Below, piece after piece: positions 9,777-11,789 of a stretch of DNA of 64,000 nucleotides; within the stretch, counting starts at the first letter, position 1; each line of letters begins with the position of its first letter. A model generated the notes under the pieces. That model made no database searches. It saw only the letters and a program-made list of their open reading frames with translations, and was not told where the DNA came from. The translations under genes and the position numbers were made by a program. The DNA is from Parachlamydiales bacterium (GTDB lineage Bacteria; Chlamydiota; Chlamydiia; Chlamydiales; JAJFMK01), in contig CAVXVG010000001.1 in the NCBI GenBank assembly GCA_963765145.1, forward strand, positions 21,350 to 85,349, in the 5' to 3' direction.

Positions 9777-11456
9777 ATGTATCTTCTTAAAAAGAAGGGG
9801 AAGAAACCAATGGTCGATCCTACGCAAAAAAAACGAAGTGGAAGCTTTTCTGAAAACTCCCCCGAAAAGAAAAGACTCAAGGTTGAGGACAAAAAAACTC
9901 AAACTGTTTCGCAAGACACCCTTAAATCTCTAGCAGCAACACCAATAAACACATCCAATATAATAGAAAAAAACGTTATAAGTACATCTAAAGATGCATT
10001 GTTAATTTCTGTAACCTCTATGATCGACCAATGCAAGTTTGAAAGACAAAAAAAATTGAGCCAGTTAGATCCAAATACTCAAAAAATAATCGAACATTTT
10101 GCTGATGATCTATCAACTTTATTACCGTTTGCTAAGCAATATGCTGAAATTACAGACTCTATTAATAAAATTGAACAGGAATTAATAGAAATTGATGCAT
10201 ATATTGGTGATCTAGAAGATCTTCTTGAAAGCGAAAAAAATGAAGAGCATATTTCTAAACATAAAAAAGAAATTCAAGACCTCAATAAGAAAAAAGAGCC
10301 TCTAGACGAGCAGGAAAAAGACCTCTCTTCCAAATCAAAATCAGCCACTACTCTGATGAAAAAAAAGATTAGCTCTTTTTTAGAATCTTATAAGGTTCTT
10401 TCGCTGGAATCAGATATGTTCTCTCCATTATATAAACTAGATCAGATAGAAGAAAAATACCGCGATACAACATTAGTTGCTTATCAAGAGCAAATTTTAA
10501 ACAAGTGTGTTAACAGTCAATTTTATATTAGCGAAGTAAGCAGAATAATCGAAAAAAATAAGCAAAAAATTATCGAGATTTTCTATCAAGGCGATTCGAA
10601 ATCTATAAATGGTTCACACGTTAGTTTCAAAATTCATCCTTCGAATTTGGAAACACATAATCTAGGGAAAATGGCCTGTAAAATTATTTTTATTTATAAA
10701 GAAAATTCATTTCTTACAATTTATTATAAACCTCGTAATGCGGAGGTTGATTTAGCTGTAATAGAATTATTTTTCAATTTGAATAAAATCGAGCATAAAT
10801 CTCTTAATGTGTCTTTGCCGGTTTATAAAATTGGCCGTTTAGAAGGTGTTGAAGATTGCAGTCTTTGGGAATTCATTGATGGAAAATCAGAAAAAATCGA
10901 TGTACAAACTTACATAGATAGAAATATTACTAGCGAGAACCATCAAAAATATTTAAGAGAAAAACTTAAAAGATTAGAATCTATTGCTACTGCTATCCAG
11001 TTAAGCGACTTGCATGGTGACAACGTTATTTTTAAAGGCTTAGATAGTTCTAACCCTGAAATAGTTCCTATCGATCTTGAAAGTTTCCAAGAGGGTAATT
11101 CAACAGGTCTTTGTTCTTCAAATATTTCATATCCAAAATTAAATGCTGAAGAAATGAAATTAATTTCCGAATTTAATTTAAATCGAAAAAAAATCCCTTT
11201 TCGTTTAGTGCCAATACCAACGGGCGAATTTCTAGGTGCCCTAACCAATCCTTTTAAATTTCAAAAACTTACTGAGGCTATGATTTCTGCTATTAAAAAC
11301 CAAGGGTATATTTTGACTATCAAAGAAGACGAGTTAGCAAGTATCGTGTTGAAAGAATTAATTTATGATGATGTTCCATATTTAACAGAACTCTCTTCAG
11401 TGATATATTTAGGATCGCCGCATGAAAAGCAACCAATTGCGAAAAAAAAGGATTAA
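9777..11456 (+). CDS. Stand-alone LanM-type dehydratase/kinase (DUF4135-like) domain with basic N-terminus and coiled coil
   Basis: Motifs ETHNLGK, YYKPR, WEFI, DLHGDNV, IDLES, FRLVPIPT and DDVPY occur in LanM order; no LanC cyclase domain. The start may be ATG 9810. Confidence 0.8.
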   Translation: MYLLKKKGKKPMVDPTQKKRSGSFSENSPEKKRLKVEDKKTQTVSQDTLKSLAATPINTSNIIEKNVISTSKDALLISVTSMIDQCKFERQKKLSQLDPNTQKIIEHFADDLSTLLPFAKQYAEITDSINKIEQELIEIDAYIGDLEDLLESEKNEEHISKHKKEIQDLNKKKEPLDEQEKDLSSKSKSATTLMKKKISSFLESYKVLSLESDMFSPLYKLDQIEEKYRDTTLVAYQEQILNKCVNSQFYISEVSRIIEKNKQKIIEIFYQGDSKSINGSHVSFKIHPSNLETHNLGKMACKIIFIYKENSFLTIYYKPRNAEVDLAVIELFFNLNKIEHKSLNVSLPVYKIGRLEGVEDCSLWEFIDGKSEKIDVQTYIDRNITSENHQKYLREKLKRLESIATAIQLSDLHGDNVIFKGLDSSNPEIVPIDLESFQEGNSTGLCSSNISYPKLNAEEMKLISEFNLNRKKIPFRLVPIPTGEFLGALTNPFKFQKLTEAMISAIKNQGYILTIKEDELASIVLKELIYDDVPYLTELSSVIYLGSPHEKQPIAKKKD

Positions 11457-11459
11457 AAT

Positions 11460-11789
11460 ATGAATTCACCTGCTCTTAACATAGATTCTCAAGCTTTTAG
11501 GATCCAGGCTTTCAAATTTAAAGAACAAATTATCAATCAAGCGGAAGCAAAAGCACATGAATGTGCCCAAAGACATCTTTCTGCTAATAGAGAAGATGCT
11601 AAGGCAATTTTTCTCTCTAGGAAGGCTCTCAATGATTTTAGAAAAAAACTTGTAGAAGAGTATTCGGATCCTGCTTATGCAAATCTTATTGAGATCGCTG
11701 TTGAAGGGCAAACGAATTTCTTTTGTGATAATCTTGTAGTGAAGCTCAAAAATATTATGATCTCTACAGAGAATGACTCTAAACTTTAA
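11460..11789 (+). CDS. Hypothetical helical protein, coupled to the LanM-like gene
   Basis: 109-aa ORF starting 3 bp after the upstream stop. Confidence 0.6.
   Translation: MNSPALNIDSQAFRIQAFKFKEQIINQAEAKAHECAQRHLSANREDAKAIFLSRKALNDFRKKLVEEYSDPAYANLIEIAVEGQTNFFCDNLVVKLKNIMISTENDSKL

Follow-up and report, generated by a model that had tools for sequence, protein, structure and literature searches.

LanM dehydratases are known as leader-guided enzymes that tailor peptides. In a 64,000 nt stretch of a Parachlamydiales genome, called the window below, we analysed the gene of a minimal relative of these enzymes and the 109-aa gene that directly follows it. The source genome is 2.68 Mb in size and 84.8% complete, and the window is part of its contig C1. 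In the LanM enzyme CylM, residues K274, D347, H349, N352 and D364 serve phosphorylation and D252, H254, R506 and T512 serve elimination, and the KA domain covers the place where kinase substrates usually bind (accessible text of PMC4550811). Excised LanM dehydratase domains are enough for dehydration, according to the accessible part of PMC10676384. By fold and residues, the window enzyme is a stand-alone LanM-type kinase/dehydratase, whose activity is predicted. Its conserved pairing with the downstream partner, the predicted binding of the two proteins and the intact orphan or tandem partners found where the enzyme is broken or lost make up a pattern that fits a toxin plus its immunity protein.

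Fold, catalytic residues and relatives of the enzyme

The two open reading frames (ORFs) lie on the same strand with 3 nt between them. The database gene call for the enzyme (P0001) starts at the ATG at 9810, with a purine-rich, Shine-Dalgarno-like stretch upstream. Residue numbers refer to the 559-aa frame unless stated otherwise. The Pfam DUF4135 model matched the window enzyme weakly and under its cut-off (E 7.1e-6, 25.9 vs 29 bits), and profile-profile comparison of the enzyme family with eight LanMs gave a probability of 99.3. PDB sequence searches with the single sequence or a first profile returned coiled-coil noise only; a profile of 75 rows reached LicM2 (E 1.3e-4). The AlphaFold model (pLDDT 81.5) shows 59 disordered residues, a long helical hairpin and a kinase fold in that order. 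When the model was used as the Foldseek query, CylM and LicM2 ranked first. Structural overlay gave Z scores of 17.8 (root-mean-square deviation 4.4, 320 aligned) and 16.0 (5.6, 339) for these two, against 10.8 for the best PI3K. A fold search of BFVD returned viral PI3Ks only.

The original prediction, made from the sequence alone, had claimed LanM phosphorylation and elimination motifs within the enzyme, and all of them were present. Each of the nine CylM catalytic positions is found in the window enzyme and is kept in 69 to 75 of 75 aligned family members. The R-x5-T segment alone aligned to the LanM R/T segment with a probability of 95.4 (E 1.8e-8; LanC-half control 0.3). In the profile alignment R476 and T482 fall on the invariant LanM Arg and Thr, their equivalence to CylM R506 and T512 being set by profile alignment to LanMs and by spacing rather than by residue-level overlay on CylM. 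The distance from the DLE motif to the elimination Arg has a median of 42 residues in the family vs 141 in LanM, which indicates loss of most of the KA insertion, though not of its two catalytic residues. Unlike LanM, the enzyme family has a hydrophobic residue in place of the second Arg of the R-x3-R-x-T motif. A DVPY sequence at residues 532–535 represents the DxPYF-type end motif, and the ORF stops about 25 aa later. The end of the enzyme corresponds to CylM residue ~590, so that it lacks the helices k-alpha10/11 that brace the activation loop.

No gene for peptide maturation was found with the enzyme, as the original prediction had held. LANC_like and Peptidase_C39 had no match in the source genome at its 84.8% completeness, and LANC_like had none in the enzyme itself. 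A search of window positions 1–22000 for small Cys/Ser/Thr-rich ORFs gave no convincing precursor; nine passed a loose filter, none of them a same-strand neighbour of the enzyme gene. In three relatives, the wide flanks contained housekeeping or unrelated genes, no neighbours in common and no genes of peptides synthesized by ribosomes and modified after translation (RiPPs). Of the 26 genomes whose family match reached E<=1e-30, three had LanC, each time on a contig other than the enzyme's (phylum sample, 47/401); a RiPP context was not seen. These 26 are part of 45 positive genomes; some of the 19 weaker ones may carry other DUF4135 clades. In G231, two LanC genes lie about 10 kb away from a weaker DUF4135 match. 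Groups of at least two stand-alone LanC-like genes (~440–470 aa) within a few kb were seen in G071, G086, G115, G174, G176 and G194, clustered genes of the same kind occur in G229, G231, G240, G247, G251 and G283, and LanC-bearing frames of 920–1070 aa occur in other genomes of the phylum. In the source genome, a C-terminal remnant of a conventional LanM-type DUF4135 protein is followed by a frameshifted ABC transporter (L004; G000:C26:266294-268589). This is a decayed RiPP-like locus, unrelated to the enzyme/partner pair.

A family profile search found 301 representatives at E<=0.001 and 197 at 1e-10; 150 of the representatives were listed, and the clade comprises at least 197 clusters. In a quick unrooted tree of 93 cores, from which 8 rows were left out, a branch with SH-aLRT support of 100 split the family from 7 LanMs. 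By sequence, the enzymes are a clade apart from true LanMs, with members in chlamydiae (environmental relatives of Chlamydia), in fusions to the core domain of extracellular contractile injection systems (eCIS) and on giant-virus-like contigs. The family occurs in 45 of 400 phylum genomes and in 0 of 29 genomes of family f35. Its distribution is patchy, and the loci have no neighbours in common. L001 and G197 carry the same two proteins, and G197 is of the same order as the source organism, an environmental chlamydia. Two more intact pairs of enzyme and small ORF lie in the source genome (G000:C21:232810-234685 and G000:C29:158655-160542), both very different in sequence from the window copy; against the partner profile, the partner at C21 scores and the C29 one does not.

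The eCIS_core domain is a marker of eCIS toxins (accessible part of PMC11297309). Among 25 proteins hand-picked for unusual length, three (P0062, P0146, P0157) carry the enzyme domain C-terminal to eCIS_core, at two separate positions in the tree. The eCIS-core (PVC-metallopeptidase) domain is absent from the window enzyme, and a metagenome scan for eCIS-type loci found none. A further clade was located on contigs of 21–35% GC, beside eukaryote-type DnaJ, HNH, SPRY, fasciclin and Hsp20 genes. We read these contigs as putative giant-virus DNA, from the low GC and the neighbours and not from a marker gene; since IMG/VR scans with A1 and A6 found no relative, the viral origin of L071–L077 is argued from these two features only. 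The virus-like enzymes keep all catalytic residues. The long N-terminal region is missing in 6 of 11 measurable proteins of this clade, and often most of the coiled coil is gone. One virus-like member (P0141) is fused to an N-terminal exonuclease-endonuclease-phosphatase-like domain that scores below the Pfam cut-off. P0104, from a Stygamoeba regulata transcriptome set, is nested among chlamydia-like sequences in the tree and comes either from the amoeba or from a passenger, as a host gene or a symbiont transcript.

The partner family and its orphan copies

To describe the downstream gene, we examined 50 loci and reduced them to 37 distinct places with the enzyme C-terminus and downstream DNA, leaving out duplicates, L004, the N-terminal half of a split gene and one contig end. 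A same-strand ORF of 91–152 aa, starting at −14 to +89 nt, followed the enzyme at 35 of the 37 places. At L048 an 87-aa candidate partner was found by hand and does not score. In leave-one-out homology tests, 29 of 34 downstream ORFs beat the best of 200 shuffles, and one further sequence reached E 1.6e-8. Met1 is the only invariant residue of the partner family, no Ser, Thr or Cys is invariant, and the pI ranges from 4.9 to 10.4. Positions 2 and 3 are often Ser/Thr (16 and 11 of 27). The partner model is all-helical with three helices (pLDDT 91.5). No Pfam family was common to 27 members, an Atlas search gave no usable match, and the fold search returned generic three-helix matches only (best Z 8.7), so that the fold may still be a known one. 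Comparison of the partner with LanM gave a probability of 0.07, and comparison with three Nif11-type precursors at most 2.5 bits.

Prediction of the enzyme-partner complex, built without enzyme residues 1–57, scored 0.79, and the best of three controls scored 0.00. Among solved complexes 116 of 157 attained the mark of 0.79, and among mismatched pairs 2 of 215, a rough guide here as our own alignments were used. The runs agreed in at least 81% of contacts, with a partner pLDDT of at least 82. In the predicted interface, the partner touches the coiled coil, the catalytic-loop residues D411 and H413, the region of the activation loop and the surroundings of the elimination residues. It is thus predicted to bind the enzyme across its active site. 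Virus-like homologues had a partner at none of 7 loci (about four lineages; two loci with less than 600 nt downstream), and L078, a locus related to the eCIS-type members, also had none. L070 (G342:C17) and L069 (G129:C1) contain tandem or divergent arrays of two enzymes with partner-like ORFs in between, three of them in L070. ORFs of 204–237 aa with weak partner-profile matches were dropped as helical noise; three of them (L064–L066) we take to be V-type ATPase subunit E from their appearance. The C-terminal extension of P0104 looked partner-like by eye and did not score. In P0087 an enzyme tail is joined to a partner (E 2.6e-15); this looks like a frameshift join, and therefore no natural fusion was counted.

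The partner profile found 37 of 400 genomes. With a threshold of E<=4.2e-8 and 13 weaker matches dropped, 42 partner places were tallied manually. A full-length enzyme preceded the partner at 21 of them and a broken or truncated one at 8, 12 were orphans or extra copies, and 1 lay at a contig edge. Partners were present and the enzyme was not detected in G097, G187 and G237, which are 97, 94 and 90% complete. At several orphan partners only the last 17–70 enzyme codons are left upstream. The order at L056 is enzyme, partner, a 39-aa enzyme tail and a second partner. Orphan loci of this kind and L056, with enzyme-tail remnants next to partners, are arranged like toxin-tip/immunity cassettes. 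In the single-contig genome G001 an insertion sequence (IS) splits the enzyme, and two tandem partners are intact. For two orphan partners of G187, the ratio of nonsynonymous to synonymous substitution rates (dN/dS) was 0.29 over 97 codons.

Proposed mechanism and alternatives

We propose that the enzyme is a kinase-eliminase toxin, exported to dehydrate Ser/Thr in target proteins irreversibly, and that the partner, as its cognate inhibitor, protects the producer; we give this proposal about an even chance of being right. With ATP, the enzyme would first phosphorylate Ser/Thr in other proteins and next remove the phosphate by elimination, so that irreversible dehydroamino acids are left. With most of the KA lid lost, it may be open to folded proteins. 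The partner would bind the coiled coil and the catalytic cleft and hold the enzyme inactive, and would shield the producer, the role that MesI has towards SidI in Legionella. Via a type III system, the enzyme and possibly also the partner would exit by their Ser/Pro-rich N-termini, and the enzyme would act in the eukaryotic host cytosol. Orphan partners may guard against related enzymes from mobile DNA or co-infecting relatives. If an antidote is needed, the producer or its kin are open to harm by the enzyme, and the target therefore need not be a host protein only.

Export is suggested by the N-termini of the enzyme family, which are variable and disordered, with a Ser/Pro/Thr/Asn fraction of 0.42 vs 0.24 in the background and 0.34 in the partners. 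Such a disordered, Ser/Pro-rich N-terminus presumably resembles type III signals, and the source genome has a type III export gate (FHIPEP) at C26. The original prediction had described the leader as resembling a nuclear localization signal (NLS) and the enzyme as a repurposed effector of host, possibly nuclear, proteins. The window copy does match the bipartite NLS pattern. The pattern was found in 3 of 67 family members, against a genome background of 29 in 1029 ORFs, and shuffling the same 80 residues still gave a match in 9% of cases. The NLS is no feature of the family, though the window copy could use its own motif. The effector-like features stood.

Several observations weigh against our proposal. 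L012 has a full-length, divergent enzyme without a same-strand partner, and in the leave-one-out tests 5 of 34 downstream ORFs failed and 6 passed narrowly. The best-resolved predicted contacts lie on the coiled coil (115–122, 169–180) and not on the active site, and the predicted contact with the catalytic loop would fit a substrate or activator equally with an inhibitor. The dN/dS of the G187 partners comes from one short pair and may predate loss of the enzyme. The asymmetry of loss, at most one enzyme without partner among 21 cases, is not significant when the ~5-fold larger target of the enzyme gene is considered (P=0.087). In metagenome assemblies, some of the breaks in enzyme genes could stem from misassembly, although the IS-split copy of G001 is hard to explain in that way. 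The test of N-terminal composition was crude, as the background starts were mechanical and the virus-like proteins were high too (43/5000 permutations). An eCIS-core gene was not found in the source genome, in a search whose controls gave no signal either.

The alternatives differ in what they make of the partner and of the elimination residues. If the enzyme stayed in the cell and, like HipA/HipT-type kinases, phosphorylated or else dehydrated a protein of the bacterium, the pair would be an intracellular type II toxin-antitoxin system on mobile DNA, with the orphans as anti-addiction antitoxins. We consider this unlikely. The window copy does have an F-type tra region and a tyrosine integrase as neighbours, the GC of the enzyme gene is 0.31 vs ~0.44 in most contigs of the genome, and the patchy distribution, the lack of common neighbours and the existence of orphan partners would all suit such a system, as would the precedent of HipT/HipS, a kinase restrained by a small antitoxin (accessible part of PMC9325769). 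The variable, disordered Ser/Pro-rich N-termini are not expected from it, however, and the eCIS-core fusions and the partnerless giant-virus-like carriers point to targets outside the producer. No conserved DNA-binding regulator gene was seen at the loci read, and PADLOC gave no match. That the enzyme is a kinase only, of proteins or phosphoinositides, with R476 and T482 as structural residues and no dehydration, appears improbable. PI3K, PI4K and Vps34 are the next fold matches (Z ~10), the second Arg of the R-x3-R-x-T motif is replaced, and the accessible part of PMC3482391 predicts phosphorylation alone. However, the LanM matches stand 5–7 Z units over the lipid kinases, and all four elimination residues are near-invariant in sequences of only 20–35% identity, though ~100 neighbouring residues are deleted.

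The partner could instead be an activator, replacing in trans a leader peptide or the missing KA/C-terminal helices, or it could be the protein substrate of a minimal RiPP-like pathway. The predicted contacts with the activation-loop region and the catalytic loop, the absence of k-alpha10/11 and the frequent Ser/Thr at partner positions 2–3 would be accounted for in this way. Such a role is nevertheless improbable to our minds, because the partner has no invariant Ser/Thr/Cys and no similarity to LanM or Nif11-type precursors, intact and duplicated partners persist in genomes without the enzyme, and virus-like enzymes without a partner keep every catalytic residue. Class I secretion chaperones are acidic alpha/beta proteins. 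A dedicated chaperone for the effector would be expected as a small, adjacent, coupled gene whose product binds the coiled coil, as in the model, and could be absent from virus-like carriers, for which secretion is unneeded. An all-helical fold and a pI of 4.9–10.4 are unlike that class, and a chaperone would have no reason to persist or be duplicated without its client; we regard this role as very unlikely. Of the roles first suggested for the 109-aa ORF (chaperone, inhibitor or substrate), the functional link to the enzyme held and the inhibitor is favoured over the other two.

A bolder form of the inhibitor proposal is possible, though we hold it to be doubtful. In this form, a one-enzyme toxin would apply RiPP chemistry to folded proteins, turning their Ser/Thr into reactive dehydroamino acids without prior phosphorylation, and be common to chlamydial symbionts, eCIS-armed bacteria and giant viruses, and a secreted three-helix antidote would, through its orphans, neutralise competitors' enzymes or run a toxin-antidote hold on the eukaryotic host. 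If the toxin-inhibitor proposal is true, a minimal LanM acting on folded proteins under its own inhibitor would be new toxin chemistry and would offer a leader-free tool for installing dehydroamino acids, and the pair is directly testable. For conflict among co-infecting symbionts, mobile elements or giant viruses that share a host cell, few molecular players are known so far, and orphan immunity genes of obligate intracellular bacteria would also be evidence of it.

Surroundings of the pair and comparison with known systems

The features of the pair are collected in Table 1. NCBIfam, PADLOC and PHROGs searches gave no name for either protein, and promoter and terminator counts at the pair were near shuffle level.

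Table 1. Positions of the enzyme gene, the partner gene and their features in the window.
Feature	Position	Strand	Basis or remark
Stand-alone LanM-type kinase/dehydratase gene, 548 aa	9810..11456	+	open frame from 9777 (559 aa)
Disordered Ser/Pro/Thr/Asn-rich N-terminal 59 residues, candidate secretion signal	9810..9986	+	pLDDT<50 for residues 1–59
Bipartite NLS-like stretch KKR...KKRLK	9828..9881	+	present in window copy, not conserved in family
Long helical hairpin (coiled coil)	9990..10388	+	helices 61–83, 88–141, 145–193
PI3K-like LanM dehydratase domain, ~100 KA-insertion residues missing	10497..11453	+	fold and profile alignment
P-loop E292-T-H294 (CylM D252/H254, elimination)	10650..10658	+	E/D 75/75, H 75/75
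K318-P-R320 (CylM K274)	10728..10736	+	K in 74/75
Catalytic loop D411-L-H413-G-D-N416 (CylM D347/H349/N352)	11007..11024	+	75, 69, 75 of 75
D433-L-E435 (CylM D364)	11073..11081	+	75/75 each
R476-x5-T482 (CylM R506/T512, elimination)	11202..11222	+	74 and 73 of 75
Partner gene (109 aa) for a three-helix protein, family undescribed; probable cognate inhibitor (immunity/antidote)	11460..11789	+	pairing, profile, model

Contig C1 looks like a conjugative island or plasmid. An F-type conjugation region lies at window positions 201–3861 and at G000:C1:6595-21245, with NCBIfam names TraL, E, K and B and more tra-like genes upstream, and the tyrosine integrase is encoded near the pair at 13346–14392. 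A search of plasmid records with the pair gave no match. Convergent on the partner gene, a trypsin-like serine protease with a C-terminal extension without assignment is encoded at 11926–13227 (−); its PADLOC matches, to the protease components of RT-Protease_XI and LmuA, are weak. The window is otherwise rich in ankyrin and further effector-like genes. Three tandem large effector-like proteins with ankyrin repeats and a patatin-like region are encoded at 46456–59865 (−), where an IS interrupts; two of them have long tetratricopeptide-like (TPR-like) repeats. At the contig end (63311–63985) a long low-complexity tandem repeat, GWRGWLAWLAGVA in translation, may be an assembly artefact.

The closest known enzymes are the LanMs (CylM, PDB 5dzt; LicM2, 6st5; DUF4135), with which the chlamydial enzyme shares the PI3K-like fold, the nine catalytic positions and the DxPYF-type end motif. 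It differs in having no LanC domain, precursor or LanT, in the loss of ~100 aa of KA, in its long coiled coil, disordered leader and conserved helical partner, and in its place in a separate clade. Cyclase-less LanM-like dehydratases such as PoyF and the daptide enzymes have DUF4135 without LanC and are clustered with precursors and tailoring enzymes; no precursor or tailoring genes were seen at the chlamydial loci read. The phosphothreonine lyase effectors OspF, SpvC and HopAI1 leave dehydroamino acids in their targets, need a pre-phosphorylated substrate and have a different fold. The predicted product is alike, whereas a single site of the chlamydial enzyme would perform both steps.

The domain was probably predicted earlier as Tox-Peptide Kinase. 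As far as the accessible text of Zhang et al. 2012 (PMC3482391) goes, this is a predicted kinase of Firmicutes PVC systems, with no immunity protein. The chlamydial enzyme matches its motifs E/D-x-H and DxHx[ED]N, a likeness by motif description only, and because the same motifs fit LanM they do not discriminate. The stand-alone form, the partner, the orphans, the virus-like carriers and the elimination residues are not described in that part of the source. A precedent from the amoeba-associated Legionella is SidI/MesI, an effector that, within the producing cell, requires an inhibitor encoded next to it (accessible part of PMC9942577), and HipT(Lpg2370)/HipS is an effector toxin-antitoxin pair with a kinase held by a small antitoxin (PMC9325769, likewise in part). 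Our literature search, largely outside subscription journals, found no account of the chlamydial DUF4135 pair, its partner or the retained elimination residues. Both Legionella systems belong to other enzyme families, and HipS, which originates from the N-terminus of HipA, is accompanied by HipB, whereas the chlamydial system consists of two genes, enzyme first, with a partner of no known family. This two-gene system is apparently undescribed, and its toxin-immunity architecture, partner family and spread to virus-like DNA appear to be new.

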